Numbered from the stretch's first letter, positions 3,495-46,302 are shown. The stretch is 64,000 nucleotides of DNA from an uncultured Porphyromonadaceae bacterium (GCA_937891845.1 CALATP010000064.1:14567-78566); one strand, 5' to 3'. Numbers and translations: made by a program. The notes: generated by a model not told the origin, from the sequence alone.

Positions 3495-3503
3495 AGCGAT
3501 ATA

Positions 3504-4292: not shown

Positions 4293-4294
4293 AA

Positions 4295-14299: not shown

Positions 14300-14784
14300 A
14301 ATTTTATAAATTTAAGAGTTGTGTTTTGAATGTTGATAAAATATACGCCCGATGGGAGGTGTGAAACATTGATGGTGTTGCCATCCCATTGTGCTACTCC
14401 CATAACGTATGCGCCTGTTGCCGAAAATATCTTGATGTCGGAACCAAGCAATTCGTCGCCACCTCTTATCGATAAGATGTCGCGTGCGGGATTGGGTGAA
14501 AGTACTACTTGAGTATCGTTCTCGATGGCTTCGATACTCGCATCATTTATAAATGATATTCTCTCAATCTGTCTGTAATCAAAGTACAGAACGTCGGTGG
14601 AGTTTTCGTATAAAATGCTTAACTCTGACGGGTCAAATTTGATTTGAGAAACATCAGATATGGCCACATCTGTGGGGGTTGCTCCCGATTCGTAAGGCTG
14701 AATCCGAATGAGCATCTTGGCACTCGTGCTTAGTGATATTAAGCACAGTGTTGCTACGATTAACAGATAAATTTTTAATTTCAT
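14296..14784 (-). CDS. Small T9SS C-terminal-sorting-domain protein
   Basis: I trimmed the ORF to the internal ATG that gives a signal peptide (MKLKIYLLIVATLCLISLSTSA). The C-terminus (LSPNPARDILSI...IFSATGAYV...LPSGVYFINIQNTTLKFIKL) is a typical T9SS CTD. Confidence 0.75.
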   Translation of the reverse strand: MKLKIYLLIVATLCLISLSTSAKMLIRIQPYESGATPTDVAISDVSQIKFDPSELSILYENSTDVLYFDYRQIERISFINDASIEAIENDTQVVLSPNPARDILSIRGGDELLGSDIKIFSATGAYVMGVAQWDGNTINVSHLPSGVYFINIQNTTLKFIKL

Positions 14785-15094
14785 AAATATATAATTTGGG
14801 TTAGCTTTTGCAAATGTGGAATTAATTTTTATAAAAACAATAGAAAAGTGTTTGATTTTATTTATTTTGTATAATAATTTGATATATGTCAATTCTCTTG
14901 TTGAATTTCATATGTAAATAGGATAGTGATATCGATAAAAAATGAATAAGTGGGGTCGCATAACGATTGATGCAATCTCGACAATAAACAAGGAGTTAGA
15001 GGCGGAGTTGTGAACCTCAAATAGTGCGATTCTAAAATTGTAGGATGAAAACGTATTCTAACTCTTTTTTTTATGAACGGGTTTGGCGTATGTG

Positions 15095-16571: not shown

Positions 16572-16594
16572 TTCGGCAATCCTATCGGCGCTAA

Positions 16595-22058: not shown

Positions 22059-22065
22059 TTGAGTC

Positions 22066-22124
22066 ACAGTAATGGGAGATTCCCTCGCGAAGTGGTGGAG
22101 GGGATTTCCCTGTTACTGTTTTAT
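22066..22124 (+). terminator. Long hairpin terminator after the 1,198-aa gene
   Basis: ACAGTAATGGGAGATTCCC...GGGGATTTCCCTGTTACTGT is followed by TTTTAT. Confidence 0.5.
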
Positions 22125-22350
22125 ACGCTAAGAAAAAATCCACTTACATCGATTATTCTCAATAATCAAATGCCCATTCCGATAGGCTCGGAAACAAAAG
22201 AAGAAAAGCATATGCTTTTGAAGATATACGATATTCAATCAAACAGAATATTGACACAAACAACCCAAGACGGCACGGCAAAGCCGGACGAGGATAGTCG
22301 AACAGAAACAAGCATTAGACACCACGAAAGTGGTATATATAGAACACAAA

Positions 22351-24228
22351 ATGCAAAAAGTGCATAGTATGAAATTGAGACTTAAACAAGCAATATGGGT
22401 GGCGTTGATGGCAGTGGGTGCCATATCTAATGCTTCGGCCTTTGATATTGCAACGATAGCCCAGAGCGATCCTCTTGTAATAACAGGATCGGTAGGTACG
22501 CAGAATACCTACTATCATTCATCATCGAGAAGTGGATATTCTTCACCGTTCAGTTCGTCGATATACCTCAATCTGAATATCAATGTCTATGGCATTGCAA
22601 TGCCATTCTCTTTCTACTATAATACCGATAATGTCTCTTTTTCATACCCACAATTTTCATTTAACATAAGCCCTACATTCAAGGGTTGGACGTTGCACTT
22701 GGGAAATCGTTCTATGATGTTCTCCAATTATGTATTTAATATACCATTCAATGGTGTAGGTCTTGAATATCAACGTCCCGGAGGAAAGGGCGGATTTAGG
22801 TTTGGTGCATTTTACGGAAATTTGAAGAATGCAATCAACTATTCACCCGATGATATTTCGGTAGCTACTCCTGTATATCGTCGTTCGGGATTTGGATTTA
22901 AAGCCGGTTATGGAAACTCCAAGAACTATATTGACCTCTATCTATTCAGAGCTCAAGACCATCAAACATCAATTGATGAATATTGGTGGGATCAAGTAAC
23001 AGCACAAGAAAATATTGTTATCGGCTTGAAAGGTCGTTGGCAAGTCATCCGAAATATTGCTTTGACAGCCAATGTCGCTGCTTCAATATTCTCGACCGAT
23101 ATGACTGCGCAAAAGGTCGATAGCGAAGAGGCTCAAAAGTGGGAAGGTATTTACGATGTGCGATATAGCTCGTTGGTAAGATGGGCAGGTGACGTAAATC
23201 TTACAGCTACATTCAAACCCATTTCATTTGCGTTGACCTACAAAATGGTGCAACCCGATTATATGAGCCTTGGTGTGTCGTATATGAGCAACAACTACCA
23301 CAGCATTGGCGTGTCGGCCAATACTCGTATATGGAAAATGAGCCTTGGTGGTAACTTCTCAATACAGAGTGATAACCTATCGAAGGAACAATTATACACA
23401 ACTCGAGGTCTTGTGTATAGTGCTAATCTTTCATTACCCATTAGTAATAAGATAAATATTACGGCAAGTTATAACGGATATTTGCAAAAACAATATGATG
23501 GAGTGGCAATAGTAAACGATACTACCGGTATTCACCGTGTTATGAATAGTTTTACATTGACTCCCAGCTTTAATACAGCGAGCGAAGTACTTTCGCACGG
23601 AGTGTCATTGTCGGCCAACTACTCCGATAACAGAGATTTAAGCCTCATATCGGAAGGTAAAAGCGACGTAAAAACGTTGGCTGTAGGTGGCAACTATTCG
23701 TTGACGGTAATTCCTATCGAAACAAGTTTTGGTCTTAACTATAGCTACCAGAACTCCAATGGTTACGATACACGATATTCAACCAGTGTATATTCACTAT
23801 CGGCATCTAAGGCACTGCTCAAAGAAAAGAACTTGACATTGTCGGCGGGTATATCGTTGGTTGACAACCGAATGGATATGAACAAAAATCTATCGGTGGG
23901 AGGTACCCTGTCGGCAGGATACACATTGGCAGGTGTACACAATTTTGCTTTTTCGGCAAGTTACAACAGTTATTCCAACACTAATATTGTAGCCGACGGC
24001 TATGCGCGCGATGGAGGATATGACTTCTCTTGTTCTTTGAGCTACAACTACTCATTCACAGCATTCAGCATTACTCGCAATAAGGACAAGAGCAGTAAGA
24101 AGAAATATGAATACTATTCGGACTGGTCGCGGACAGCACGTCGCGAACGTGAAATGAAAACATTCCAAGAGAACCAGAATACTGAAAATCGCCAGCAACA
24201 GAATGCTAAAAATTTACCCAATTTTTAA
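22351..24228 (+). CDS. Predicted outer-membrane beta-barrel protein (unknown family)
   Basis: The track ORF starts at a GTG (22330), with ATGs at 22351 and 22369. The signal peptide reads MKLRLKQAIWVALMAVGAISNASA. The long body has alternating hydrophobic/polar strands rich in S/N/Y/G (LSANYSDNRDLSL, LAVGGNYSLTV, FGLNYSYQN, FSASYNSYSN). It has a basic polar tail and a terminal F. Confidence 0.7.
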   Translation: MQKVHSMKLRLKQAIWVALMAVGAISNASAFDIATIAQSDPLVITGSVGTQNTYYHSSSRSGYSSPFSSSIYLNLNINVYGIAMPFSFYYNTDNVSFSYPQFSFNISPTFKGWTLHLGNRSMMFSNYVFNIPFNGVGLEYQRPGGKGGFRFGAFYGNLKNAINYSPDDISVATPVYRRSGFGFKAGYGNSKNYIDLYLFRAQDHQTSIDEYWWDQVTAQENIVIGLKGRWQVIRNIALTANVAASIFSTDMTAQKVDSEEAQKWEGIYDVRYSSLVRWAGDVNLTATFKPISFALTYKMVQPDYMSLGVSYMSNNYHSIGVSANTRIWKMSLGGNFSIQSDNLSKEQLYTTRGLVYSANLSLPISNKINITASYNGYLQKQYDGVAIVNDTTGIHRVMNSFTLTPSFNTASEVLSHGVSLSANYSDNRDLSLISEGKSDVKTLAVGGNYSLTVIPIETSFGLNYSYQNSNGYDTRYSTSVYSLSASKALLKEKNLTLSAGISLVDNRMDMNKNLSVGGTLSAGYTLAGVHNFAFSASYNSYSNTNIVADGYARDGGYDFSCSLSYNYSFTAFSITRNKDKSSKKKYEYYSDWSRTARREREMKTFQENQNTENRQQQNAKNLPNF

Positions 24229-24248
24229 TCAACATAACGTGTGAAAAT

Positions 24249-24779
24249 ATGATGAGCAATAGAATATACACATTATTGATATTTGTGACCCTATACATTA
24301 CCCATATGATGGCGCAGTTCCCTATGGGAGCAGATGGTATGAACAATACAGCCTCGGCACCATCGTTTGTACAACCGCAAGCTCAAGAATCGGGTTATGG
24401 TTGGCTCGAAGCCGAGTTCCCTACACAAAATGCACAATTTGTATGGATACCTCCGGTTGCCAACAATGCACCAACAACTCGGTTTGTCTACGATTTCAGC
24501 ATTATGCGTGTAGTGCCCGGTCAAGAGGTTTTCGATGCTGTAGAATATGGCAATATAGCTTTTCAACAGAAAGGACTGATGACAGCCATGTGTATGATAC
24601 CACAGAATGTATTGGAAACACTGAAAAATAGTGGAACAGAATATTTTGTAGCATTGGTAACAGCTCGACCGGTAGGAGGTCAAGTAACAATGATCAATGA
24701 TGGTCGCAGTGAGGTAATGTTGTTGCGTTTCCCTGTTGTGCCAGAGCCTTGTAACACCGATAGTATTGACAATAAATAA
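24249..24779 (+). CDS. Small secreted protein, stand-alone paralogue of residues about 191-324 of the giant protein
   Basis: 176 aa with a signal peptide. Residues 37-162 (APSFVQPQ...DFSIMRVVPG...QQKGLMTAMC...VTARP...INDGRSEVMLLRFP) align with the giant protein's APSFIEPT...DFRIMRVTDG...EQKGLMTTFC...VTARS...DNDGKSEIMELYLP. Confidence 0.75.
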   Translation: MMSNRIYTLLIFVTLYITHMMAQFPMGADGMNNTASAPSFVQPQAQESGYGWLEAEFPTQNAQFVWIPPVANNAPTTRFVYDFSIMRVVPGQEVFDAVEYGNIAFQQKGLMTAMCMIPQNVLETLKNSGTEYFVALVTARPVGGQVTMINDGRSEVMLLRFPVVPEPCNTDSIDNK

Positions 24780-24802
24780 CACACAGATAATACAATATAA
24801 TT

Positions 24803-27800
24803 ATGATAAAGCATAGGATATTTTCGATAGTAACATTCATTTGCTCATTGCTATGTGCAAGTATGGCAATGGCGCAAGATGTTTATGTAGATGTGAGACC
24901 TAAGCAAAACCCGTTGCCGGCGCAAGCGGCTCTCTATGTTGATAATCCGGGACGTTTCTTCAGCATCACACTAAACAATCTCTCGGACGAGCCTATCCCA
25001 GTGAGATTGGAATTGCGTGTGGAAGGTCCTATTGAGAGCCAGATGGATATTTGGCCCAATGGTAACGACTATTTGGCTATCGTTGCCGATCGTCCTATCG
25101 AATACTATCAATATCTCGATAAAGGTCAAGTGAGAACCTTGGCCGATTCGGAATTGAATCTGATGTTTAATCAATATGTAAACAACGAACGGTATGCAGG
25201 TGGTAAAATATCTGAGATATTCAGTAATGTTACCGAAGGACACGTCGGATTATTACCAGAGGGTCATTATGGCTTGCGTGTTATTGTTAAGACTAACTAT
25301 ATTGACCAGAACGACCGTGGTCGCGTTGTAGGAGAAAATGAGTGCTATTTCGATATCAGTTATAAGGGTTCTGCTCCCTCCTTTATCGAGCCTACAGCAT
25401 CATCGGATGGTGGGTATCTCAAAGCCGATTTTCCATATCAGACAGGTCGTTTTGCTTGGACGCCTCCCACATTCAGCAATAATCGTTTGGACGCCTCTCG
25501 CAATATATTGTACGACTTCCGTATTATGCGTGTTACCGATGGTATGTCGGCTTATGATGCTGCCACAAGAGGTGCAGTGGCCTACGAACAGAAGGGCTTG
25601 ATGACAACATTCTGTAATGTGCCGTATTCCGTAATCTCTACTCTACGACGCAGTGGTGATACTCGTTATGTGGCGCAGGTTACAGCACGCTCATTGGTGA
25701 GCGATGCATCAAGCAACCAATTTGTAATGATAGATAATGATGGCAAGAGCGAAATAATGGAATTGTATCTGCCTCCATTCTCGTCGACTGGGCAAGATGG
25801 AGATATTGCAATACCTGATGATGCCGCGTTTCCCATTATTGCAACCATTCAGCCCAAAGCCAGTGTGCTCAACAGCGAGATGGAAAACTACTTCTTGATA
25901 CCTAGCCAATTGTTTACTGTCACGTTGAAGAACACATCAAGCAAGGAGTATGAGGTGAGTATGTTGTTGCAATTCCATAAGGGTAACTGGGGTGTGTGTC
26001 CAACTCCTGCTATGCAGCACAGTGACCGCTCTATGACCATTGCTGCCGGTGCCGAAATAACGCTTGATGATGATATGTTGGATTATCTTGCAGGTGAATA
26101 CTTGATGGATTATATTATAGCCTTTAAGGCCGAGACAGGATTTATTATTGGTCCGCCTTCATCTACGCACTTCCAAGATATTAATAACTTTGCTACATTG
26201 CGTGTGTGTGAATTTACCGGCCAACCTGTATTGCGTGAAAAAATCATTGGAAAGGCACGCTGTGAATATACCGTTGACCCCAATGTAGAGCTGGGTAACG
26301 ATTTCAAGATCGAATTTACTCCTAAGATGGAGCTTATGCCTCATCAACCCGAGATATACTTTACCAATCCGTCTCGTCTATATAATCTGAAAATTACCAA
26401 CTTAACCACTTCGAATAAGAAACTTACCGCAATATTACAATATGTAATTGATGAAGATCATAGTTATAATGGCTACGATGAAAAAGGTGATAGAATAGAC
26501 CAATATTTTGAGATTGGAGCAGGTGATACTTTTATCTTCTCTGATGCCGATTTTGATAAACTTTTTGGTGGTTTTAAATCCGTAAACTATCAAGGGAAAA
26601 GTGGGCAAGTAGCTGGGCAATCGTTCTCTAAGTTCGAATTTTCAGATGATGATAACAACATAGCACGCATCAACTTATTTGATTACGAGAAACTTCTCAA
26701 AAATAAAGATAAGAAATCAGAGGCATTGATACAAACCGGCGATGTCGAGTTTGTTGTGTCTGATATGATAAAGGTGGGACGTGTTAATATCACAATAAAA
26801 CCGGCTCTTACCGAAATGCCATTTTGGGGCGACCCATATATTGCCGAGCCGGGACGTTTGTTTGATATCTCTATTGAAAACACAAGTGATGCAACACTTC
26901 GATTAATGCCTCAACTCACATATAAAGGCGTTGAAGTTGATGGAGTAACCTATGATTATGTACCATTGCAATGCTATCAAGACAACATTACCGACATTAT
27001 TTTAGAACCATATGATAAAAAGGATCTGACTATCGATGAAATAAATAGATGGTTGGGTGGCGCTCAAAAAGATTTTGATGGTGATGGTGTAATTGATACC
27101 GTAGCGATGCGTTACAACTATGACACCGAGAAAGTGGAGTCTTGTACCGATGTCTTGATGATGTTTAATGGAAATGAAACCGGTATTGTAGAGTTCCGCT
27201 TGCTCAATCGCATTATGTATGATGAGTTGGTAGCCGTGAACGACCCCGATCGTATCAATAAGTCATTGGAAAGTTCGGCTATATGTGAATTTATTCCTAA
27301 TGAAGATGCAACTCTCAGTGTGGTTGATGTGGAAATCAAGAAGAAATCCGACCTGATGCCTACAAACCCCGATGCCTACTTTGATAAACCCGAAAAGCTA
27401 TGGGATATCACATTGCGCAATTCTGCTACTCACGAAGTTGATGTTGTATTGTATCCTTTGATTGCGTTTAATGATGAATATGGTATTGAATATACCACTC
27501 GCAAATTGGCCGATTGCAAGAGAATTACACTTAAAGCCGGACAGGAAATGCCTTTGACCGAAGCTGAGATTAACGCATTATTCGGTGGCCGGAACGCATA
27601 CCGATTAAGAGACGAATCTAATGGAGTAGTAAACTCAGACCTTATTCCATATCACGAACTTGATGAAAAAATTAATGTCGGAGTAGAGCTCACCAACAGA
27701 TTCAAAATTTTAGTATTGTCTGACGCAATCTTAAGTGAGGATCGTGAAGGAACTCTAGAAGACTATAGCTATGGTTCCGGTTATATCGAATGGAAAGCTA

Positions 27801-30800
27801 ATGACACATATACACTTCACGACTTAACTATCACAATTACACCCAAAGAAGAACATCTTGTAGATGATGGTAAGGCTTATTTTGTAAGCCCGGGTGCATT
27901 GTTTGATGTAGAAATCAAGAACAACACAAATAGGGTGCAGAATACTGTGTTGGCTATATCATATCTATTTGACGAAACAGGAGCTTATTATCAGGGAGAC
28001 CTCACCAATCGCAATGATATACCACTCTCAATTGGTGCAAACGATACAAAGAAACTGACAGCCAAGGAACTCAACGATATGTGTGGTAATATGACGAAGG
28101 TGTATCGTTTTAATCCTACTACCGATGGTTTTGACAGACAAGAAATTACTTTTGATGAAATAAAAGTTAATGTTACGTCATATAACCGCGTCGAAATAAA
28201 TGCTTATAACACTGATTCGCTCAAAACTTCTACAAAAGAAGACCCTTATCGCTTGCAAAAAGCATATTTGGGTGGAGATAAAAGCGACTTTAATGCTCGC
28301 AGTGGTGTCAGCGATATCGGTCTGAAAGTGATAATAGAGCCCAAATCGGGTGCCACTTTCAAAAGCGATGCGGAGCCTTATTATGCAACACCCGCCGATC
28401 TTTTCGATGTTACACTTATCAACGAGAATGCTGTTGATGCACAAGTAAAACTACGTATCACTTACAACAAGCGTTTCTATGGTGATGATCGTGATAGTGT
28501 TATTACTATTAAGTCCAATACCACAATGAAACTCGATGGTACTCGTCTCAACAATATATGTGGTGGATACGACTTATATTCCGATAAGATACACGAACTC
28601 AATGAGAAAGGTGAGTATGTTGGTACCAAGTCGGGCAAAGAAGTTGTGATGAAAGAGGGTGTCAATATTGTTACTGCTCTTTTGTGGAGAAAAGAGGAGA
28701 AAGACCATAAATTTGTTGTTGATACAATATGCACGCACGACTCTATCTTTGTAACATCTTTCTCGCAAATAAAGATTGGTGAGTATGATCTTACAATCGA
28801 GGATATTGAAAAGGTAACAGGTGGTAATAAAGAGCAAGAGAAACTCAAGAACGATTGTTATAAAGGTAAGGGATATGTTACAGCACCCATTATGGGTGTC
28901 AAGGTTGATATAAACGTCGAGTGGGATTCGATATATATCAACTGGAAGGAGAAGAAAGTTACCTTGGGTACTGTAAAATCGCGTCAGCCCGAGAATCAAT
29001 TCTTCCCTGCCGAGCTATTTAGCGACGATACCAAAGAGCTGTTAAAAACTGTCTCCGACTCGGTTTTTGTCGAGAAAGTAGATTCAATTTTCGATGCTCG
29101 CAACATCAACGAGTACTATCGTTGGGTGCAAAAAGATATTCAGTATGTACAAAACTTGACCGGAGGAGGTCGTGTCACACTGCCTATAGGTATATCTTTC
29201 CCAATGAAGTCGGGAGGGCAATGTCCTGCCGACATACAATTGGCACAAATGACATTCTCCGAGAAAGAAGCCAAGATGGATATTATAGGTGAGTTTGTAT
29301 TGCCCGAGACCGACTATCTGGGTAATGTTACCTATGATAATGGAGTAAGCAAATACTCGGGTGACATTCTTGTATTTGCCGCTCAAGACCTTGTTACTAC
29401 TCCCGGCAAGTTCCTTCCCGAATCGGGCACTTTGGGACTGCTTACCGATATCACGGTTAAGGATCCCGGAACAGGCTTTGATTTTACTTTTGTTGCTCCT
29501 CTGACACGATTTAGCGAAGCCACATCAGGCTGTTTCATCCGTTGGGAAAATGGCAATTTCGGTGCGTTATCGGCATCTATTAAGGTTAATGTTCCGGGTG
29601 GCGAAGTTGTAAAAGTTGTTGATGGCGTTGTTGATGAAACCGGTGCGCCCCCTTCTATTCAGATTGATGCACTTATCAACGATGGTAGCGATTGGTTTGG
29701 TAACGTATCAATGGACAGTTTTGAGATTGTCGATTTGCCCGATTTTACATTTACTGTTGCAGGTACAAAAGCCGGTGATACAGGTATCTATTATGACCAC
29801 TCGCGTAAGACTACTCGAGGATCGGAGTCTGAGGCAGGCGGATTGGGACGCGTCGAGTTCCACCCCGACTACTATGACAAGACATTGGGCGGATCGGGTA
29901 AACCGGCATCTGATAAGACTGCCTATAACGCTTGGCAAGGTTTTTACTTCAAGGAGCTAGGAGTTGAATTGCCACACTACGATTTTCTCAACAACACTAC
30001 CGAAGAACGTCCCAAGATTACAGTAAACAACTTGATGTACGATGAGACAGGTTTCTCGATGAGTGCCGAGGTGAAAAATGTTATAGATTATAGTACCGAG
30101 AAGGCCGGTGGTTGGCGATTCTCAATCGATAGTATTGCATTGAGTGTGCTTCAAGGTAACTTCCGCGATACCGGTTTCAAGGGTAAGATAGGAATACCAT
30201 TGCTCTCCGATAAGAGTGCAAGTAATGACACGGTAACAGTCCCTGCTGCTATATTATATAAGGCAAAGGTTATTGCTTTCGATAAGAAGTCAAATGCCAA
30301 GAAGGGTACAAGTACGACATTTGAACTCGACCAAGAGATGGACTCTATGGCTATCAACTGCTTCCTTGCCGAAGTATATCTTGAGAATAGTAAAACTTGG
30401 TTCTGGATCAATCACAATACAACTCGTCCCGAAGATAGGCAAACACTGTTTGACTTCAGTTTGGGTGGCTCGATAAAGATTAATTGTGGTGACTTCAGTC
30501 TGCCCGAAATACCATTTAGTGGTATGGGTTACTCTAACTGTACTGCTGCCGAGAAGGAGAGCGCCGAAGAACAGTTTAAGACGTCACAACAATCTACAAC
30601 ACCATCAAAACCCGATAATCCGAAGAGTCAGATTAAGTCGCCCGATGGTTCCAAAACCTTTTCTCTTGGTGATTGGGATTTCAATAAAAATGATGCCTCG
30701 AGCGAAGAATCATATTTCCAGGGATTCCCTGTATATATCAAGGATCTCAGTTTAGATATTCAAGGTACTGATAAGGTAGGTATTAAGTTCAATTGCGGAC

Positions 30801-33800
30801 TATCGGTAATGGGTAGTAAGAAGGCGGGTGTTTCCGCCGATGTGGGTCTTGGTATTTATGCTAAGATTAACTGGGATGATTTCTCTCTCGCATACGATAC
30901 AACCGAGGTTTCCGACCTGCAACTTCAAGGTCACTTTGGTGGAGTTGTAACTATAAGTGGAGGACTCGAGTTCTGTAAGACCGAGGAGAAAGAGGGTTTC
31001 GCTACCAAGGCCGGAGCACCGTTGGAACTCGGTATAAAAGGTCTCTTTAACTTGCAAATTGCCGGAGGCTATTACAAGGTGAAGAAGACCGAAGAAGACT
31101 ATGCCCTCGACACCTTCGATGAGAAGAAAGACGCTTACTTCCACGCAGGATATTTCTTGGGTAAAGCAAGTAAAATGAATGTTCCTATGGGACCTGTCGC
31201 TCTAACTTCGGTGATGGGAGGATTGTTTATCAACTATGGAACGACAGCCGGTGGTGTGAGTGGAACCGACAAGGCATTCTATGAGGCTATTCAAGAAAAC
31301 GCTAAGATAAAATATAAAACTTATGGTGGCGCATTCGGTATAGGTTTGTCAAGCGTGGGTTCTGAAGCTTTGCTCAAAGGCGACCTCAACTTTATGCTGT
31401 TGATTGATATCAATGGCTCGAAGGTGCGTGTACCCGAATTCCATATGCAAGGTAACGTTCACGCTATATGTGCCAACCCCGATTCGGAAGAAGGCCTTAT
31501 CAACTCGAGTGTTGACCTTATATTCCAAGACAATACCGACGAAAACGATCCCCAGCCCGACCAATGCAAGCGTTTCAATCTCAATATGACTACAACGGCG
31601 GGTGCTACTATCGATCAACTATACGAACAATTTACGGGCGAAAAACTTGAAGTGCCCGAAGCTGTTGGAGACTTCCTCAGCGATTTGGATGCTAAGAACG
31701 CCAGTGACGAGAACAAAGGCGAGGGTGGCAATACTGCCGATACATCATCAAAGACCGAGTCGAAAGGTTTCCTCAAAGCTGGTTGCAGTGCCGAGATTAA
31801 GTTGGAACTAGAGATACGCAACTATCCCTATGCTACCGATGGTAAAAAGACATTTTGGCATATATATGTAGGTAAGCCTACCCCCGACAATGAGCGTTGT
31901 CGCATCACGTTTATCGACTTTGAGATAGGTAAAGACAAGCCCGTAGGATTGTGGGCTAAGGTATATGCCAATGCTTATCTGTGCTTGGGTAATGAATTGC
32001 CCGATAATGGTGCGTTACCTCCTATACCCGACAAGGTGCTTGAGGCGTTGGGAATGAAGGGTGCCGATGGCAAAGCGCACCCTGAGAATATGTCCAAACT
32101 TGAGGCCGAACGTGAGGATCAAATGTCGGGCTTCAAGAATAGAGGTATTAATGGTGGTATTATGGTGGGTGCTGCTCTGGGTGCCGAGATAGGCTGTAAT
32201 GCCGTGTTCTGCTATGCAAGCGTAGAAGGTATGCTTGGTTTTGATATGGTATTGAAGAAATTCAGCCCGGGAGAGCGATGTGGCGATGGCACACTGATGG
32301 GAGGTACTAATGGTTACTACGCAACCGGTCAGCTTTATGCTATGCTTAAGGGTGAGCTTGGCCTGATGCTCGACTTGTGGATTTACAAGGGCAAGATACC
32401 ATTGGTCGATATGACTCTTGGTGCATTGCTTCAAGGTGGTTTCCCCAATCCCACTTGGGTATATGGTCGCCTGCGTGCAAGCGGTTCGGTGCTTGGTGGA
32501 TTGATTAAGTTCAATTCAACCATAGAGATGAAAGCCGGTAGGGTATGTGTGCCGGCATTTGGCAATCCGCTTGATGATGTGAAGATATTTGGAGACTTTA
32601 ATCCCGGTGATGAAGACCTTGAAAATGGTTGGGCTGCTGAAAATGCCGTATCACCATACAGCACGGTAAGTTTTACAACCAATATGAAGATGGGTAAATA
32701 TCTACCTCTGGTTGACCAAACTCGTACAGCCAACAATATAGGTATGGATATTCCCGAAGAAGGTGAAAAAGCTGAAGACAAGACTGTGTTGCGTACCTAT
32801 GTGTTCTATCTTGGTCGTGTCGATGATGAAGGAGAGCCTATTTCTTCGGTTCCTACATTTGAGATTACTCAATATAATGATAATAGTACGAGCGACAGTC
32901 GACCAGAAACCGATGCTCGCTATATCGAGTGTACCAACCCATCGGGCGACAAAGAAAACTTTACACTTATCACCGGTTCTCTAAAAGAAAATAAGTGCTA
33001 CCGAGTTGTACTTTCGGGATATTGTAAGGAGGTGGTTAATGGCAAAGAAATCAACCCTATATTCAACGATTCTACAACCAACTATCAAGATAAAGAAGAA
33101 GTGTGGGATCAATTGCAAACAGTTTACTTCCGCACAGGTGAGTTTAGCAAAAACATCGTTGATGATGTGGCGGGTTTCACTCCTATGGCAGTAGATGATA
33201 AGTACAATTATTATACAGCTACTCTTGAAGATGTAACCAACCCCACTGTGATGATGAGAAATGATCGTGAATCCTATTGGAATAATCCTGATTATGAGTT
33301 CTCGGCATCTCTCACCGAATATGTTGAACGCGAAAATGAAGATGGCGTTACAGTAGGCGAATGGGTATATCCCGATGCAAAAGATGGTTTATATCGAGGT
33401 CAGAAATCGGCATATCAAGACTTGGAGATAAAATTAGTCACCGAAAAAGGTGTCGATGAATATGGCGATGAATACTTCTATCAAACAGTGAAATTAGCTC
33501 AACCACTTCCTAAAGAAGCGTTTAAGAAAGGTGGTAGATATAAGTTTGAAATCACTCGTTTCAATCGCAAACTGATGACCGATCAGCTCAATCTTATTGA
33601 GGAACGATATGAAGATATGATGAATGTTATACAATCGGACAAGGAAACCTTTGAGAAAGAACTCGACAAGATGAACGATGACGAAAAGGCTGTAGCTAAG
33701 CAATTGTATGACTACTATCAATCGATGGAAGAAGAGTATGGCGAAAATACAGCCGAACAACGTAAAGTAGAATTTATGGAACAGGCAAAACAAAACTCCG

Positions 33801-38311: not shown

Positions 38312-38350
38312 ATCGTTAAATTTTGATATAAACAAGATATACATAGAAAT

Positions 38351-40588
38351 ATGAAAAAGATACTAATAATAGGTGCATTACTCTTGTCGGTAGCAGGGTT
38401 GACTGCTCAGCAACCCACATATACCGATGAGGAAATCAGCAAAATGTCGAGAGAGGAATTTGCCGAATATCTCAACTCCATTCAAGTTGACACAACGGCA
38501 CAATTTGATACCATTGCCCAGCGACATCGTTTTGTGATAAGAACGCTCGTGCGACCCAAAGGCGATAAAGTGATACTGCGTTGGGCTCCCGATCAGTATG
38601 TGCCTTGGTTCTTTGGTAATATTCACGGATATAAACTATTGCGCATAGATGACGATGGCAATATCGACACTCTTGAATCTTGCTTGAAACCGATGCCTCT
38701 TGAGCAAATGAAAACCCATTTCGAGCCGTCCGACTCGTTAGCCGGAGCAGCTGCACAGTTGGTGTACGGACAAGGTACTACACTCGATGAAGCCTTGGCA
38801 AGTGAAGGCGCAAAAGGTATTATGAAAGTATATGAAGAGCAAGAAACACGATTTGCCTATGCAATGTTGTTGGCCGAAATCCGTCCCGACATCGCCAAGG
38901 CAATGGGTTTGATGTGGGAAGATAAGACTGCCCAAAAAGGAAAAACCTACGAATATGTTGTGGCATCAAATATTCCCGACTCGATAGCTTATATGTCCAC
39001 AATGCCCATAGTGGTGAAAAATGTGCGTCAAGAGCCGGTACATTTCGATCCGATTATTACCGACTCAATAGGTCAAGATGGTCGTTCGATAAGACTTTTC
39101 TGGCCTATGAATCATAACTTCAGTACCTACGATATAGAATGCCGTTATAATGGAGGAGAGTGGGAAAAACTCAATGAACATCCATTCTTGACTCTTATGA
39201 CTGTCGAAGATGAGGACGCCGGACAAAATATTTATAGTCACAATGATGCAGAAGTAGGACTCTATGAATATCGCATTTGTGGTTACGATGCCTTTGGTGA
39301 TAAGAGTAATTATAGTACCGTAGTAGAGGTAGAACTCAAAGATATTATTGCTCCTACACCTCCTGAATTGCGCCAATTTTACTTGAATAAGGAAGATAAT
39401 GGCGACTATGTGGTAGATATCCATTGGACCAAAGCCGAGCTCGAACCCGACTTTGTTGGATATGACATCTATTACTATCAACCCAAGGTACACGACAATT
39501 GGTTGAAGATTAACGAGCAACGATTAGCACCAACCGATACAACCTATCGTTACACTCTGCCCGTAGATATGTCGGCATATATTACTATTGCAGCTTTCGA
39601 CACAATAGGCAACTATACAGCATCGCTGCCGGCCGAGGTACACATTGTCGATGAAATACCACCCTCAGCGCCCACCAATCTCCGGTATCAATTGTCACCC
39701 AACGGACTGCTCACAATAATGTGGAACCCTTCGCCCGAGGATGATGTGTATCGTTATCAAGTTTATAAAGCCGATAATAGCAAGATGGAATTCTTGCCAA
39801 TGAAAGGACGATTGGTGAGCGATACGGTTGCATTGGATACAATCCCCGTAAAAGGACAACAACGATATAATTACTATCGTGTAAAAGCCTATGACTTTTC
39901 GGGTAACGAATCGGACTTCTCAGAGATACTAGAAGTGCAACGTCTTAACTTTAAGCAACCGGAGCCTTGTCGTATCGACTCGCTCTATACGACCGAAGAG
40001 TATGTCTATATGAAGTGGTACCCATCTCCCGAAAATGATGTGGTAAAATACTATGTTTATCGTCATCGCTCGGATGAAGAGGTGGCTCAACTTATCAAGG
40101 TGGTATCTGCCGATTCGTTGGTCGATGGCCGCATTATCATATATGATACACCTATACCGCACAGCGAGAAACGTTATCACTATTACATCGAGTCGATGAA
40201 TGCTACGGGTGTAAGCTCAAGACCTTCGCACGAGGTATCATCGATGTTTAAGGGGCCGAGAACAATCCGTGCAACAGTAACCCTCAGTGCCAATTATCGT
40301 CCCGATATGGATCGTATCATATTGGCTTGGGACTATCACGACCTTACACAAGAGATTATAGATGAAGGTGCTTACTTATGCTTGTATCGCAAGATAGAGG
40401 GCGAAGAATACTTCCAATTTATGGAATCGTTGAGGATAACCGAACGCTCTACTTATGACCGTCGTGTACCGGAGGGAAAGACTGCCGAGTACGAAATGCG
40501 TATTCTCACTCGCACAGGTAAGAAGAGCGAGTACTCCAATCGCGCACAAGCAACAGTTCCGGTAAAACAGGCCGAAATGAGCAATTAA
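38351..40588 (+). CDS. Secreted protein with multiple fibronectin type III-like domains
   Basis: 745 aa with a signal peptide (MKKILIIGALLLSVAGLTAQQ). FN3-like units repeat (SIRLFWPMNH...YEYRICGYDAFGDKSNYS; PTNLRYQLSPNGLLTIMWNPSPEDDVYRYQVYK...YYRVKAYDFSGNESDFS; MKWYPSPENDVVKYYVYRH). Confidence 0.8.
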   Translation: MKKILIIGALLLSVAGLTAQQPTYTDEEISKMSREEFAEYLNSIQVDTTAQFDTIAQRHRFVIRTLVRPKGDKVILRWAPDQYVPWFFGNIHGYKLLRIDDDGNIDTLESCLKPMPLEQMKTHFEPSDSLAGAAAQLVYGQGTTLDEALASEGAKGIMKVYEEQETRFAYAMLLAEIRPDIAKAMGLMWEDKTAQKGKTYEYVVASNIPDSIAYMSTMPIVVKNVRQEPVHFDPIITDSIGQDGRSIRLFWPMNHNFSTYDIECRYNGGEWEKLNEHPFLTLMTVEDEDAGQNIYSHNDAEVGLYEYRICGYDAFGDKSNYSTVVEVELKDIIAPTPPELRQFYLNKEDNGDYVVDIHWTKAELEPDFVGYDIYYYQPKVHDNWLKINEQRLAPTDTTYRYTLPVDMSAYITIAAFDTIGNYTASLPAEVHIVDEIPPSAPTNLRYQLSPNGLLTIMWNPSPEDDVYRYQVYKADNSKMEFLPMKGRLVSDTVALDTIPVKGQQRYNYYRVKAYDFSGNESDFSEILEVQRLNFKQPEPCRIDSLYTTEEYVYMKWYPSPENDVVKYYVYRHRSDEEVAQLIKVVSADSLVDGRIIIYDTPIPHSEKRYHYYIESMNATGVSSRPSHEVSSMFKGPRTIRATVTLSANYRPDMDRIILAWDYHDLTQEIIDEGAYLCLYRKIEGEEYFQFMESLRITERSTYDRRVPEGKTAEYEMRILTRTGKKSEYSNRAQATVPVKQAEMSN

Positions 40589-40612
40589 TACGATATGTAA
40601 TAAATTAGTAAT

Positions 40613-41314
40613 ATGAAACTAATCCGAAATATATGGCTACTGCTGACGGTGTTATTGGTAACATCGTGTGGCGAATTGTTCAATCTGAACGTTAATGATG
40701 CCGATGCCCCCGATGGAGTGATGATGACACATCACAACATCGATGTGATGGTAGGTGACTCGGTATTTTTCGATGCAAAGGCCTATCCTGACTCGGTGGT
40801 AGTATCTTATAGATGGAAATTATTGGGTGATACCGACGCCGGTAAATTGGAGGGAAATTGGTTTCACGCTACGGCTGCCGGAGAGTTGCAACTACAAGTT
40901 GAGGCCGAGAATATCGACCTTGTTGACGACTCTATCTTTACAGTAAAGGATGTATGTGATATCGTAGTTTTTGAATGGAGCGAAGGAGCCGATCAAGGCG
41001 AGTACCTTTATGAGACTGTCGTATATGCCTCGCTTGAAATAGATGAAGTAGATGTGACTGCTTCTATCGACAGCCTCCAAGTAGTAGCAGTGGTCAAAGA
41101 CGAGGTGAGAGCTCGTGCCGAGATGAAAGAAGCCTATGGTGTGAATTATCTGCAATTGCGTATTGGCTCGTATTGGCCCGGTGAGATCGCTACTCTCCAA
41201 TGCTATCATCCGGGATTGCATCAGCATTTTGTTTTTCAAGAGATAAAGCTCAACGGATCTACATACGGACGATTGTCCGATCTTGTAAAACTTGTAGGAT
41301 ATAGTAAAGATTAA
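40613..41314 (+). CDS. Lipoprotein, unknown function
   Basis: 233 aa with a lipobox (LLVTSCGE). It is beta-rich, with an Ig-like-looking N-terminal part (IDVMVGDSVFFDAKAYPDSVVVSYRWKLLG). Confidence 0.72.
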   Translation: MKLIRNIWLLLTVLLVTSCGELFNLNVNDADAPDGVMMTHHNIDVMVGDSVFFDAKAYPDSVVVSYRWKLLGDTDAGKLEGNWFHATAAGELQLQVEAENIDLVDDSIFTVKDVCDIVVFEWSEGADQGEYLYETVVYASLEIDEVDVTASIDSLQVVAVVKDEVRARAEMKEAYGVNYLQLRIGSYWPGEIATLQCYHPGLHQHFVFQEIKLNGSTYGRLSDLVKLVGYSKD

Positions 41315-41331
41315 TTATAAAGCTAGATGAT

Positions 41332-41829
41332 ATGAAAAAGTTGAAATTGGTGCTATTGATGCTTTTGTGCGTGATTATGGCAAATGCATCTGAAGATTTG
41401 AAGCAATTTGACAAGATTGTACTTCAACTGACTGATGGAACGAGATACGAAATACCTATCAATAGTAGTTCATATATATATTCGTGTATAGAAGAAAGTG
41501 ATACAATAGTGCGACAAGTCGTAATTGTCAAAGGTGACAATTGTGAATATAAATTTGAACGAGCTGAAATAGCATCGATAAGGTGTGTTGAGGTTCCTGA
41601 AGGTATGGGTGTTACTCCTATAAAGACAGATAAACTGCGATATGAAGATGGTGTAATCAAGACGCACTCTTCTCTTGCCGGTGAATATATTACTATATAC
41701 GACCTTGCCGGACGTGTGGTTCTATATACCAAGATACAAGAGAAAACAGCCGTATCAATAGAGCATTTGCCGGTGGGTATCTATATTGCAAAATCTGGTG
41801 GTCAAACAATTAAAGTGGCAGTAAGATGA
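41332..41829 (+). CDS. Small T9SS C-terminal-sorting-domain protein
   Basis: 165 aa with a signal peptide (MKKLKLVLLMLLCVIMANA). The C-terminus (GEYITIYDLAGRVVLYTKIQEKTAVSIEHLPVGIYIAKSGGQTIKVAVR) is CTD-like. Its stop overlaps the next start (ATGA). Confidence 0.72.
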   Translation: MKKLKLVLLMLLCVIMANASEDLKQFDKIVLQLTDGTRYEIPINSSSYIYSCIEESDTIVRQVVIVKGDNCEYKFERAEIASIRCVEVPEGMGVTPIKTDKLRYEDGVIKTHSSLAGEYITIYDLAGRVVLYTKIQEKTAVSIEHLPVGIYIAKSGGQTIKVAVR

Positions 41830-44800
41830 GACGAAATATAAAACATTTGATTGTTTGGGTTCTGATGCTAATGGTATTAGCCCCCAATGTCAAGGCGCAA
41901 GTTGACCTGCAAAGTTCCTTTATGGTGATGAGAAAAGATAGTCTTATTAATGGTATTCTCGAAGGAGGTGAGTGGATTATAAAGTTTACCGATACCGACA
42001 CTTTGGGTAATATATACGACTATCCCGTGGCAATGAATGTACAAAGTATTGTCAAACCCGATACTGCATTTATCCCATTGGAAGAAGTTGATAGTGTGAT
42101 GTTTCAACTTCCGGAATCGGAAATGGAGTATGGCGTGTTTGAACTTAAAGAGGAACACTTCAAGTATATAGTAAGTTCCGACAGTGTCACAACTGTCAAT
42201 TTCCGTATAGACTGCTTGACACAGATCGATTTACCCCGAGTGGGTCAAAAGGTTATCTGCAATATCTTGCGCGACCCATTGCCATTTGGTTTGGTAGGTC
42301 AAGTTAAGAGCGTTAAAGTGAGCTATGATGACGGTTATATTCAGATGGTATGTAACCCTTTGACATTGGGCGATATTTATACCAAATATTACAAAGTATC
42401 GGTTACAGATGAGATGGACGAAAGCGTAACACCAAGCGGCTCGCGAGCTACTCGTGCACTTGCTCCGCCGGCGATGAAGCCTCAAGATTATGAAATTACA
42501 CCCAAAAAACTCGGTTGCCCTTTTAAAGGAGGTAGTTATTTGGTATGTGATGATAATGCTAATCTTAAAATTACCAACGATCCGGGCTTGTTATCGTCTA
42601 GTAGTCATATATTCTCTTTCGGAGTAGAAGTGGACGGTAGTATTGCTGTTTATCATATTGCGGCTATCGATAGGGAACGGGATCTCGATTATACCGATGT
42701 ATTCATAGAATTTGATTTATTGGCAAAGTTACCAATGAGGTTCACGATGGCAAAATTTAATCCTATGAAAAATATGTGGGAGGGTACTCCTTTCGAGAAG
42801 AAAGACAAGTTAGAAATAGATTTTCCCAATATCCCAACACCAGTTCCGGGCCTATCCGTAACAACACGAACCGGTATGGAATATGATGCGTCTATCCAAT
42901 TGGTTTTTCAAATAGCTCCTACAATACCTATACGTAAGCGCATAGGTCTGCATCTCGATGGTTTGAATTCGTCGGGAATATTTGATGACCTGCCGGGAGA
43001 TCAAAATCCTAAAGATAATAATGAAGAGGGTATTAACACATCGATTTTGCTTCGTGGAAGCATCTCTGTAGGTATGTATATAGAGGCCGGATTGTCTATT
43101 GCTAATTTTTTTGACCTTGTGATAAATGTCAAACCTACAGTGCGCTTGGGTGGAAGCATCGATTTTAATCCAGGGCATATCAATAATAGAGTAACTGATA
43201 TTGAGAACGGTGACATCGAAATGATGAAGGAAATCTATACAAATTTCACTCAGAATAATGGTCTTAATATTGAAGCCGGTGTAATATTGGATGGAAAGGC
43301 AAAAATTCCTGCTATAGACGTTTTGGAATTGTCACTTGTTGAATTCCTTAAAAGTGTAGGAGTTCTTAAAGGAGATCCATTTATGTTTCCCGCTTCTAGA
43401 ATTTCGGCGTTGTCACCTTTCACTCCGTCCGATATATCGCTTATGAGCATAGGCCTAAATGATTATTACTCTATGACTTTTGAGCGAGATGCTATTGCCT
43501 CAACAGCTTTGTTTCAAGATAAGGCAACGGGTGGACTATTTTTCAAAGATAAGTCAAATAAATTCATAATCTCAAGAGAAATAGATTCGTGGAAAGACAT
43601 ATACGATAAGAATAACGCCTTTGATTTAGGGCAGTCGTGTCGGGGAGAAAAGGTCTCGGTATATCCATATTTATATACCACCTACACCGGCTATATGACA
43701 CCCGGAAAAGCCGAAGATGTGTATATCCCATTCCAACCTACAATTGAGATTGTTGGAGAACCTTCGTATGATGTAATTAAGTTTAAGGGAGCTGTAGTTG
43801 AGGACGAAATAAAAAATAATATTGACAAATATAGAAAGGTGCGTGTCCTTATTGAGGTTGTTGATAAAAGTGAGAATGGGTTCTTTAATAATACAACTCA
43901 ATCATATGATTTGGATGACAATGGTGAGTTTGAAGGTCAGATAGAACGCCATATGTTTCAGAATTACTTTGGTCTAAAAGCCAGAAAAGCCAACATCAGC
44001 GTACAGGTATATGACCCTGACGATAATGTATATTGTTCAAGCGAAAAGGTATATGCCGAGTATCTTGATTTGTCGAGACCTACAACTCTTGCCGCAACAG
44101 ATATCACATACAATAGCGCAACATTAAATGCCGAATTATCTGAAGACCTGATTTTTGAAATTCTTTATGGCGATAGTAAGGTAAAACTAGGATTTTTATA
44201 TCATATTCCGGGTGAGTCCGGTACAACCCAAGAAGTGGAATTTGATGCCAATGACATTATAGACAATGGCAAATATTACCATACAATCACCGGATTAAGA
44301 TCCAATACACAATATGAATATTATGCATACACGCGTGTTGATGGTATCAGATACGATGGTGATGTATTCTATTTGAATACCGAGTCGCCTATATCTAATG
44401 TTCGATACGAATCGGGATCGGACTTTATAATAACGTATGCCGATATTGTACAAGGATTTGTTGATGCAAGTGCGCGCCAAGACATATATTTTGAGCTTAC
44501 CGATTTTGATGATCGTAAATTCGAAAAAGCAACAAAACTAAACGTCGAGCCTGAAGATTGGACTATCCACGAAGACGGTTCAGCAACAGTAGATGTTATG
44601 TTCTTGGATCTCACGCCTTCAACATATTATAGATACCGATTGGTATTGATTGATGCTTCGGGTTATAAAATTATCAGTGAAGAAAAAGTTGCTATTACAT
44701 CGGAATCTGACTTAAAAGCAACAACAGGCTATGCAACCGTAGATGGCAATACAGCGACGATTAGAGGAAGTATATCGCCCTATTTGCTTGAATTGTTGAA

Positions 44801-45383
44801 GAGCCAAGATGTAACAAATGCCTATTTTGAATACTCAAAAGAAGAAAACTTCATATCAAGCACAGTAGTATTTGTTTCGCTTGACGACGATACCGAATAC
44901 TCAACAACTTTGAGCGATTTGAGCTACGAAACAGTATATTACTACCGATTCTGTGCTATGGATAGGGATTATACAGTTTATGAAGGTGATATATTGTCAT
45001 TTGTTACTGATGATGCCCCTGTTGAAAATGTAGAAGAGTGCTACACATTGTCGGCATCGGTTGAAGATGCAAATGTAGTGATGACCGGAGGAGTTCCTGC
45101 TGCAACATTGAAAGCAATTGAAAATGGTACATACAAAAACGTACAATATGGATTTGAAATAGCAACAAGCAAGGGCGAATTGACAGGTAAGAAACCTACA
45201 TTTGTTACGAATGAAATAGACGAAGATAGCGGTCTGTTTACCATTACAAAAGTGTTGCAACCCAATACCACTTACTACATCCGTGCGATGGTATTCTTCA
45301 ATGACAAATGGGTTGTCGCACCTGAGATAGTCTCTGTAAAAACAGCCGACTTCGATCCCGGTCTGATACCCCCAGATGTATAA
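41826..45383 (+). CDS. Large secreted protein, unknown N-terminal half plus C-terminal FN3-like array
   Basis: 1,185 aa with a signal peptide (MRRNIKHLIVWVLMLMVLAPNVKAQ). From about nt 44080 there are four to five FN3-like units (TDITYNSATLNAEL...ITGLRSNTQYEYYAY; LDLTPSTYYRYRLV; LSDLSYETVYYYRFCA; LQPNTTYYIRAMV). No T9SS CTD is present. Confidence 0.8.
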   Translation: MRRNIKHLIVWVLMLMVLAPNVKAQVDLQSSFMVMRKDSLINGILEGGEWIIKFTDTDTLGNIYDYPVAMNVQSIVKPDTAFIPLEEVDSVMFQLPESEMEYGVFELKEEHFKYIVSSDSVTTVNFRIDCLTQIDLPRVGQKVICNILRDPLPFGLVGQVKSVKVSYDDGYIQMVCNPLTLGDIYTKYYKVSVTDEMDESVTPSGSRATRALAPPAMKPQDYEITPKKLGCPFKGGSYLVCDDNANLKITNDPGLLSSSSHIFSFGVEVDGSIAVYHIAAIDRERDLDYTDVFIEFDLLAKLPMRFTMAKFNPMKNMWEGTPFEKKDKLEIDFPNIPTPVPGLSVTTRTGMEYDASIQLVFQIAPTIPIRKRIGLHLDGLNSSGIFDDLPGDQNPKDNNEEGINTSILLRGSISVGMYIEAGLSIANFFDLVINVKPTVRLGGSIDFNPGHINNRVTDIENGDIEMMKEIYTNFTQNNGLNIEAGVILDGKAKIPAIDVLELSLVEFLKSVGVLKGDPFMFPASRISALSPFTPSDISLMSIGLNDYYSMTFERDAIASTALFQDKATGGLFFKDKSNKFIISREIDSWKDIYDKNNAFDLGQSCRGEKVSVYPYLYTTYTGYMTPGKAEDVYIPFQPTIEIVGEPSYDVIKFKGAVVEDEIKNNIDKYRKVRVLIEVVDKSENGFFNNTTQSYDLDDNGEFEGQIERHMFQNYFGLKARKANISVQVYDPDDNVYCSSEKVYAEYLDLSRPTTLAATDITYNSATLNAELSEDLIFEILYGDSKVKLGFLYHIPGESGTTQEVEFDANDIIDNGKYYHTITGLRSNTQYEYYAYTRVDGIRYDGDVFYLNTESPISNVRYESGSDFIITYADIVQGFVDASARQDIYFELTDFDDRKFEKATKLNVEPEDWTIHEDGSATVDVMFLDLTPSTYYRYRLVLIDASGYKIISEEKVAITSESDLKATTGYATVDGNTATIRGSISPYLLELLKSQDVTNAYFEYSKEENFISSTVVFVSLDDDTEYSTTLSDLSYETVYYYRFCAMDRDYTVYEGDILSFVTDDAPVENVEECYTLSASVEDANVVMTGGVPAATLKAIENGTYKNVQYGFEIATSKGELTGKKPTFVTNEIDEDSGLFTITKVLQPNTTYYIRAMVFFNDKWVVAPEIVSVKTADFDPGLIPPDV

Positions 45384-45403
45384 AGACAATAAACCCAATA
45401 AAC

Positions 45404-45437
45404 AAAAGGCTGTGCCCATCGGCACAGCCTTTTGTTG
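45404..45437. terminator. Bidirectional hairpin terminator between convergent genes
   Basis: AAAAGGCTGTGCC-CATC-GGCACAGCCTTTT is a perfect 13-bp stem flanked by A and T runs. Confidence 0.65.
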
Positions 45438-46229: not shown

Positions 46230-46302
46230 TGATCCGCCTGGGGCTCGAACCCAGGACCCCAACATTAAAAGTGTTGTGCTCTACCTGCTGAGCTAGCGAA
46301 TC
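46230..46302 (-). tRNA. tRNA-Lys (anticodon TTT)
   Basis: The minus strand folds as a cloverleaf. Acceptor: GATTCGC/GCGGATC. D arm: GCTC-AGCAGGTA-GAGC. Anticodon arm: CAACA-CTTTTAA-TGTTG. T arm: CTGGG-TTCGAGC-CCCAG. Discriminator: A. No CCA is encoded. Confidence 0.9.

Follow-up and report, generated by a model that had tools for sequence, protein, structure and literature searches.

A Bacteroidales gene cluster pairing a predicted outer-membrane barrel with a giant exoprotein distantly related to the TANFOR class

The window analysed here, 64,000 nucleotides of one strand from an uncultured Porphyromonadaceae bacterium (GCA_937891845.1 CALATP010000064.1:14567-78566), carries on its plus strand a cluster of genes, g0–g7, built around g3, which encodes a secreted giant of 4,502 amino acids (aa). 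By sequence comparison this locus is a Bacteroidales branch of the giant exoprotein systems that are known by their TANFOR domain, and its relationship to them is distant. The gene for a predicted outer-membrane beta-barrel, g1, accompanies the giant gene throughout the family. We read the cluster as a two-partner-like system in which a barrel and its passenger serve the display of the passenger outside the cell; the mechanism is inferred, and we give this reading a probability of about 55%. The original prediction, made from the same DNA, had proposed that g1–g7 are a dedicated and undescribed envelope system, with the barrel and accessory proteins exporting, anchoring or assembling a giant tipped with leucine-rich repeats (LRRs).

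TANFOR proteins were proposed as a class of polymorphic toxins in 2020 by Jana, Salomon and Bosis (PMC7073777). They combine Sec signals with variable C-terminal toxins, many of them ending in nucleases, deaminases or VIP2, and FN3, PKD, SprB and type IX secretion system (T9SS) sorting domains are enriched near their genes (PMC7073777). More than 95% of TANFOR genomes possess the T9SS, and export by this system was speculated (PMC7073777). In the window the giant (24803–38311) carries the N-terminal sequence MIKHRIFSIVTFICSLLCASMAMAQD, which on inspection of the translation resembles a signal peptide and has the look of a cleavable one, not of a signal anchor. Residues 24–330 (24872–25792) form a divergent TANFOR-type N-terminal region composed of two parts, M0 (24–190) and S2 (190–330). 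Comparison by hhalign of the first 325 residues with TANFOR-annotated N-termini from Cytophagales gave a probability of 99.7% (E 2e-26, 273 columns); this comparison set consisted of the N-termini of 119 proteins, including WP_019942835.1 of Dyadobacter beijingensis, for which TANFOR is listed at 27–168 (PMC7073777, Supplemental Data 1). Taken separately, M0 matched the TANFOR part with 98.4%, and S2, of which g2 is a paralogue, matched the following subdomain of TANFOR proteins with 98.3%. The region that comes next (residues 340–1321, 25820–28765) consists of modules M1–M6 of ~160 aa, each matching M0 with 97–99%, so the giant holds seven TANFOR-like modules, in tandem as in Tannerella forsythia. 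Self-comparison of the giant by BLAST revealed no repeats, the modules emerging only with family profiles, and offset BLAST alignments to homologues indicate that their number varies.

The divergence of this region is considerable. The TIGR02542 model (T_forsyth_147) gave no match at E ≤ 1 for residues 1–500 of the giant or for g2 and, with the complete giant as query, none at E ≤ 0.01; a relative from Ravibacter scored only 24 bits against a cut-off of 67. The name “TANFOR domain-containing protein” is given by UniRef to this relative and to those related to it from Dyadobacter and Fibrella. Proteins recognised by the TANFOR model occur in only 5.8% of RefSeq Bacteroidetes genomes (PMC7073777), in a search that missed the branch to which the window belongs, and the published list contains neither Prevotella nor any other member of this branch (PMC7073777).

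The barrel gene g1 occupies 22351–24228 (open reading frame, ORF, from 22330 or 22351; 619–625 aa). Its product, originally taken for a 632-aa outer-membrane barrel, is likely to start at ATG 22369 and to comprise 619 aa, judging by a database copy (P0107) that begins at the equivalent position. The barrel itself was reproduced in an AlphaFold2 model based on 50 homologues (predicted local distance difference test, pLDDT, 78.5), which has 26 long strands and a charged C-terminal helix, and contains no plug or periplasmic domain. Foldseek found MtrB as the best match of this model in the PDB (6r2q_B, template-modelling score, TM, 0.47), followed by the ushers FimD and PapC, by SlpA and by LptD; the similarity to the FimD and PapC barrels is one of fold (TM 0.3–0.4). 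All these proteins are large barrels that house or pass a partner protein, and since the g1 product, which the model predicts to be a large outer-membrane barrel too, lacks a plug of its own, a partner in its lumen is plausible. A sequence search of the PDB with g1 gave no match, and neither g1 nor 50 members of its family matched any Pfam or NCBIfam family even at E ≤ 1. The family is nevertheless large: an exhaustive search returned 2,130 clusters at 50% identity, 1,074 of them with E ≤ 1e-30. It is also better conserved than its neighbour, as g1 proteins are still ~50% identical where the giants are only 26–30% identical.

Gene order supports the pairing. Homologues of the giant form 92 clusters of 2,740–5,111 aa, nearly all of them metagenomic and none with a meaningful name, and synteny was counted in the 92 related loci, each denominator being the number of loci with enough flanking sequence. 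In 76/81 loci a g1-type barrel gene immediately precedes the giant gene, and in 69/72 a g4 homologue lies directly downstream; g5 is found downstream in 61/72, and of the 39 loci in which the flank reaches 7 kb or more, 30 have a g0 homologue upstream of the barrel. One order is kept in ten metagenomic loci with giants 22–60% identical to the query: a protein of ~900–1,400 aa, often with a sorting domain, then one of ~600 aa, next the giant, and after it an FN3 protein of ~750 aa and a protein of ~240 aa, to which the pair g6 and g7 is often added. This pair recurs in loci L001, L005, L007, L009, L010, L031, L037 and L044; g6 and g7 belong to part of the family and are missing from many loci. 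Small g2-like proteins were found near the giant in seven loci in all, distant ones included. The dedicated gene set thus stands in the sense that its synteny is conserved over 92 loci, but by these counts the conserved core is g0, g1, the giant gene, g4 and g5, while g2, g6 and g7 are accessory. The trio of g1, giant core and g4 is met again in Cytophagales (Ravibacter), Chitinophagales and Chlorobiota, and the concern of the original prediction that the set might not be syntenic in any other genome can be set aside, because gene order is kept both in the 92 loci and in these other lineages of the Fibrobacteres–Chlorobi–Bacteroidetes group.

A scan with the conserved core, limited to one genome per species, found at least 566 related loci, most of them in metagenome-assembled genomes (MAGs) of ruminant and gut Bacteroidales that bear the label Bacteroidaceae, Prevotella or Muribaculaceae. 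Such loci are also carried by cultured organisms, Segatella baroniae DSM 16972, Hallella faecis and Ravibacter arvi among them, and relatives are present in Chitinophagales, Flavobacteriaceae, Paludibacter, Ignavibacteria and Chlorobiota. The nearest relatives bear the name Muribaculaceae, their barrel being 81% and the core of their giant 78% identical to those of the window, which makes a Muribaculaceae-like gut bacterium the probable source of the window. Genomic neighbourhoods differ among related clusters, and in locus L003 primase-like and DUF3987 mobile-element genes adjoin; for these reasons the locus may be mobile or situated in a variable region.

The published TANFOR loci contain neighbours that fit the same plan. 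Their supplementary table lists an unannotated protein of ~550–565 aa with a signal peptide upstream of TANFOR genes, often with a 17-nt overlap, and an FN3 protein of ~660–800 aa downstream (PMC7073777), which correspond in position to g1 and g4. One of these upstream neighbours, that of Dyadobacter beijingensis, was tested for membership in the g1 family, and it matched with E 3e-69 a profile built only from Bacteroidales sequences. In this locus (L092, 6338–17405) the TANFOR protein WP_019942835.1 lacks the beta-core characteristic of the window's giant, yet it is preceded by the g1-family barrel with the 17-nt overlap. FN3 proteins are encoded downstream of it, and the vicinity also holds genes for a response regulator and a TPR histidine kinase. 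Because a TANFOR protein devoid of the core has such a barrel, sequence comparison indicates that the barrel goes with the TANFOR N-terminal domain, as is expected if this domain is an address for the barrel. In Paludibacter (L090, 3996–17060) and in a Flavobacteriaceae MAG (L088, 1–15851) the N-terminal domain and the core are located on separate proteins of one cluster, and for this reason the cassette can be regarded as modular; in Paludibacter the barrel gene is downstream.

The alignment of the giant family falls into four zones: conserved residues 1–500, modules of variable number up to ~1320, a core from 1322 to ~3080 and a poorly conserved C-terminal third. The core (residues 1322–3080, 28766–34042) is predicted to be all-beta, and its conservation peaks at 2300–2640 (31700–32722), where invariant glycines and cysteines and a Gly-rich hydrophobic hairpin (2452–2471) are found; the cysteines are compatible with disulfide bonds formed outside the cytoplasm. 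An AlphaFold2 model of residues 1650–2849, built on an alignment of 27 sequences, consists almost entirely of long antiparallel strands of 12–20 residues, ~37 in all (pLDDT 70, predicted TM score, pTM, 0.45). Foldseek searches with it gave weak, generic barrels in the PDB (LptD, SlpA; TM ≤ 0.2) and nothing among viral structures, so that comparison with a phage tail or an RHS cocoon finds no support, as the model has no usable match in either collection.

These weak matches to LptD, together with a barrel gene that closely precedes the gene of a very large beta-rich protein, could be taken to mean that the giant is part of a machinery for envelope biogenesis comparable to TamA/TamB or AsmA/LptD, bridging the periplasm and moving lipids or proteins to the barrel. 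The TamA/TamB pairing had been offered as an alternative in the original prediction as well. It does not survive a comparison of defining features: profile searches detected no Omp85 or POTRA, TamB (DUF490) or AsmA match in g1 or the giant, and the giant ends in a Ser/Thr-rich tail. Its cleavable-looking signal peptide where a signal anchor would be expected, the variable numbers of modules, the variable C-terminal ends and the LRRs also disagree with such a machine, as do the differing genomic neighbourhoods, and a distribution as patchy as the 5.8% of RefSeq genomes given above (PMC7073777; a figure obtained without this branch) would be a misfit for a housekeeping role. We therefore consider a biogenesis function highly improbable.

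When the family is aligned, the lineage-variable C-terminal region (residues 3081–4502, 34043–38311) is sparsely occupied and of low identity. It contains LRRs at ~3446–3846 (35138–36340) matching internalin-J, SlrP and SHOC-2, a repeated domain of no recognised family at ~3950–4430 and a Ser/Thr-rich tail, in agreement with the LRR tip originally predicted. LRRs were also the sole matches of the giant in a sequence search of the PDB, and no Pfam family was found in it. Among the tails of 34 relatives, 8 have LRR-type domains and 2 have domains similar to the C-terminal domain of ribosomal protein L7/L12, the others containing DUF285 or nothing recognisable. Such L7/L12-like domains, one or more of them (PF00542, best E 1e-44), terminate relatives P0025–P0069, which are 37–38% identical to the window's giant (for example in L001, 10001–24364), and one relative of 4,970 aa owes to this domain its GenBank name “ribosomal protein L7/L12”.

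Such variability of the C-terminal region raises the possibility that the giant is a weapon, its unannotated end (~3850–4430) being an unrecognised antibacterial or anti-eukaryotic toxin delivered by contact. The C-terminal fold of L7/L12 binds translation GTPases, and for this reason the ends of some 38%-identity relatives could have their site of action within a target cell. The giant is, moreover, homologous to TANFOR proteins, a class in which nucleases, deaminases or VIP2 form the end of many members (PMC7073777). However, no toxin family was found in the window's giant or in the 34 sampled tails, and no small immunity-like gene follows the giant gene, its place being taken by g4, which starts within 39 nt and is the direct downstream neighbour in 69/72 loci; LRRs and Ser/Thr-rich tails are typical of binding and surface proteins. 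A toxin in the window is accordingly an improbable explanation, and the comparison with the published class can be drawn as follows. The likeness lies in large size, a sequence resembling a Sec signal, the TANFOR-type N-terminal region (hhalign 98–99.7%), a variable part following a conserved one, and neighbours with FN3 domains (g4, g7) and T9SS C-terminal sorting domains (g0, g6). The differences are that TIGR02542 does not detect the giant, that LRRs stand in place of a toxin domain with its immunity gene, and that PMC7073777 describes neither the partner barrel nor the beta-core nor the g4 family.

The display system that we propose has its closest analogy in two-partner secretion and contact-dependent inhibition (TpsB/TpsA and CdiB/CdiA, type Vb). 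There, too, a barrel gene directly precedes the gene of a giant exoprotein, a conserved N-terminal domain is found on otherwise different passengers, the shaft is long, repetitive and beta-rich, and the C-terminus is polymorphic. This likeness is one of logic and not of descent. The model of g1 has 26 strands, where the Omp85-family transporters of type Vb have 16, and it is devoid of POTRA or other periplasmic domains. Membership in type Vb fails because g1 lacks the Omp85/POTRA signature and the giant lacks the two-partner secretion (TPS) domain: in g1 and 50 relatives there was no Omp85, ShlB or POTRA match at E ≤ 1, and the haemagglutination activity domain of TPS passengers was absent from the giant in Pfam and NCBIfam searches. 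The same two libraries place g1 and the giant in none of the other systems considered, that is SprB/SprF, TamAB, autotransporters or chaperone-usher pathways. Chaperone-usher membership is contradicted by the lack of any usher (PF00577), chaperone or pilin profile in the cluster, the likeness of g1 to ushers being at the level of fold only; autotransporters of types Va and Ve are excluded by the location of barrel and giant on separate genes and by the absence of autotransporter, intimin and invasin profiles. MtrB with MtrA (MtrCAB) and LptD with LptE have the same strand number as predicted for g1, and MtrB is its best structural match. By analogy with them the conserved core of the giant or the g5 lipoprotein may be candidates for the lumen of g1, which differs from both barrels in having no sequence relationship to them, no haem motifs and no LptD beta-jellyroll.

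The course of events may be imagined as follows. The giant would cross the inner membrane via the Sec pathway and dock to g1 by its N-terminal TANFOR region, serving as an address in the way in which the TPS domain sends TpsA or CdiA to the partner barrel. The wide barrel would act as a conduit, as a sheath around the g5 lipoprotein or around a portion of the giant, or as both, similar to the occupancy of MtrB by MtrA and of LptD by LptE, and g4 could be a rod-like accessory spanning or extending the complex. The variable C-terminal end would then be displayed outside the cell. As this end is an LRR binding module in the window's lineage, the product there would be a very long adhesin or receptor-binding fibre rather than a toxin.

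Several observations weigh against this scheme. Gene order and predicted fold suggest, as was also proposed originally, that the barrel may serve to export or anchor the giant, and for a physical pairing of g1 with the giant synteny is the sole evidence. The core model is of moderate quality by the scores given above and finds no structural match beyond TM 0.2, which leaves several candidate roles for the core, among them those of a plug, of a shaft or of a second barrel. TIGR02542 gives no match to the window's giant, and g4 and g5 could be either periplasmic or surface-located. Finally, the cluster includes genes for T9SS cargo, and because, in addition, more than 95% of TANFOR genomes have the T9SS (PMC7073777), export could depend on that system.

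The last point leads to an explanation that follows the hypothesis of Jana et al., in which the giant would leave the cell through the T9SS, perhaps carried by or handed to g0 and g6, and g1 would be an outer-membrane anchor like PorP/SprF for SprB. Two proteins with sorting domains are encoded in the cluster and another nearby (14296–14892), sorting-domain proteins recur in related loci, and sorting, FN3, PKD and SprB domains are enriched near TANFOR genes, in genomes of which more than 95% have the T9SS (PMC7073777). This explanation is at variance with the C-termini of the giant and its relatives, which are mutually unrelated and have no sorting domain of type A or B. Nor does g1 or any of its 50 relatives show a PorP/SprF, PorV or PorQ signature in Pfam and NCBIfam searches, and 26 strands far exceed what an anchor needs. 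Besides, g6 and g7 are absent from many loci and g0 from the distant ones, whereas g1 and g4 persist. On balance T9SS-coupled export seems rather unlikely, though better founded than the toxin explanation. As to the gliding-adhesin alternative of the original prediction, SprB/SprF and RemA-type loci likewise have a giant Bacteroidota surface protein beside an outer-membrane protein gene and genes for T9SS cargo; the alternative fails on the absence of SprB repeats, of the type B sorting domain and of PorP/SprF matches in Pfam and NCBIfam. The display reading also has a bolder form, which we regard as tentative and somewhat less probable than its negation: the g1 barrel and g4 may be the outer-membrane machine of an undescribed secretion and display pathway of Bacteroidota and Chlorobiota, independent of the T9SS, with the TANFOR region as targeting signal and with giant passengers that would be toxins in some lineages and LRR adhesins in gut Bacteroidales.

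When the eight proteins were searched against Pfam and NCBIfam, the matches were confined to generic FN3, LRR and sorting domains and pointed to no named system, as had been noticed from the sequence at first sight, and g1, g2 and g5 of the window had no profile match at all. N-termini resembling signal peptides were recognised on the products by inspection of the translations, and g5 has the lipobox LVTSC, in keeping with the secretion signals originally claimed for every product. Outside the seven genes first noticed, g0 (18462–22058) encodes a secreted protein of 1,198 aa with a T9SS type-A C-terminal sorting domain, which passes TIGR04183 (27.3 bits, cut-off 23) and remains below the threshold of Pfam Por_Secre_tail (24.3 bits versus 27); a sequence search of the PDB with g0 gave no match. 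The 176-aa secreted product of g2 (24249–24779) is a stand-alone copy of the S2 subdomain: its residues 35–162 are 44.5% identical to residues 189–324 of the giant (E 1e-34), which confirms the paralogy proposed for it but puts the related domain near the N-terminus of the giant, not in its interior. Secreted g2-like copies of 170–192 aa stand between barrel and giant in loci L009, L042, L058, L063, L067 and L068. Since copies recur in distant branches of the family, the sequences suggest a function of their own and not a recent accidental duplication.

Downstream of the giant, g4 (38351–40588) encodes a secreted protein of 745 aa with a family-specific N-terminal domain (~60–200) followed by ~5 FN3 domains. 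A profile of 31 members matches in the PDB the FN3 arrays of titin, RPTP and contactin over positions 180–730, and Pfam detects fn3 in 21/31 members and an FN3 domain in the g4 of the window. The predicted lipoprotein g5 (40613–41314) has 233 aa; its relatives in L006 and L008 carry an Ig-like Big_2 domain. The accessory genes g6 (41332–41829; 165 aa) and g7 (41826–45383; 1,185 aa) specify, respectively, a protein with a T9SS type-A sorting domain (TIGR04183, 30.6 bits, above the cut-off of 23) and a secreted protein with FN3-like domains, matched in Pfam by Pur_ac_phosph_N and fn3.

ORF calls confirm the compact arrangement of g1–g7 described originally. From g1 to g6 the genes are separated by 20, 23, 39, 24 and 17 nt; the ATGA overlap of g6 with g7 couples these two translationally. 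The hairpins flanking the seven genes are real too, when compared with shuffled sequences. One of them (22066–22119, −32.9 kcal/mol, z −5.3) resembles a terminator and belongs to the leader between g0 and g1 (22059–22350, plus strand), which also contains conserved sequence blocks and is a probable promoter or conserved leader of g1–g7. This intergenic region is ~80% identical to its counterpart in L009, where the proteins are 60–80% identical, and several blocks in it are invariant, for example GCCCAyTCCGATAGGCTCGGAAACAA. The other hairpin (45401–45436, −28 kcal/mol, z −7.7), with a perfect stem of 16 bp, is probably a bidirectional terminator. Rfam recognised no RNA family in the cluster or its leader, and a scan of the locus for sigma-70 promoters was uninformative, this consensus being unsuited to Bacteroidota.

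On the minus strand, divergent from the cluster, lies a hybrid sensor and regulator (15153–17980) with the Pfam composition TPR-HisKA-HATPase-receiver-AraC, a type which adjoins the cluster in L001, L006, L009 and L010 as well. In the window a run of nine G residues (16598–16606), which closely follows the HisKA H-box, splits it into two ORFs. No other G/C homopolymer of 8 or more is present in the 64 kb, and the orthologue in L009 is a single ORF of 947 aa without such a run. This frame break could either reflect an assembly error or serve as a switch by which the locus undergoes phase variation. Further on the same strand (13004–14892), the gene for a T9SS sorting-domain protein of 197 aa shares 4 nt with the beginning of a gene whose 430-aa product belongs to no family; the pair is arranged like g6 and g7, its resemblance to g6 being weak (E 4e-6). 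The window has a second LRR surface protein, a BspA-type one of 646 aa (59492–61432, plus strand; LRR_5, E 3e-60), and a similar LRR_5 gene sits between g4 and g5 in L005. Two tRNA genes were found, at 62597–62670 (plus) and at 46230–46302 (minus), the latter ~800 nt past the terminator hairpin of the cluster.

As the giant is a distant member of a class published in 2020, the finding is no categorical novelty. To this extent the proposal of an undescribed system has to be narrowed; it holds for the barrel, the beta-core and the g4 family, which, together with a Bacteroidales branch that is tipped with LRRs, devoid of toxins and missed by the TANFOR model, are undescribed in the literature searched, where, beyond the 2020 paper, nothing was found on a partner barrel or an export route of TANFOR proteins either. 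What is gained is the pairing of TANFOR-type proteins with a dedicated and unannotated barrel, predicted to have 26 strands, whose family of ~2,100 clusters at 50% identity has no Pfam model, and with a conserved FN3 protein. Pairing with a barrel makes the question of TANFOR export testable. The class is extended to ruminant and gut Bacteroidales, namely to Prevotella-like lineages and Muribaculaceae, and its passengers ending in LRRs may be very large fibres for binding of a host or partner in these abundant gut bacteria.

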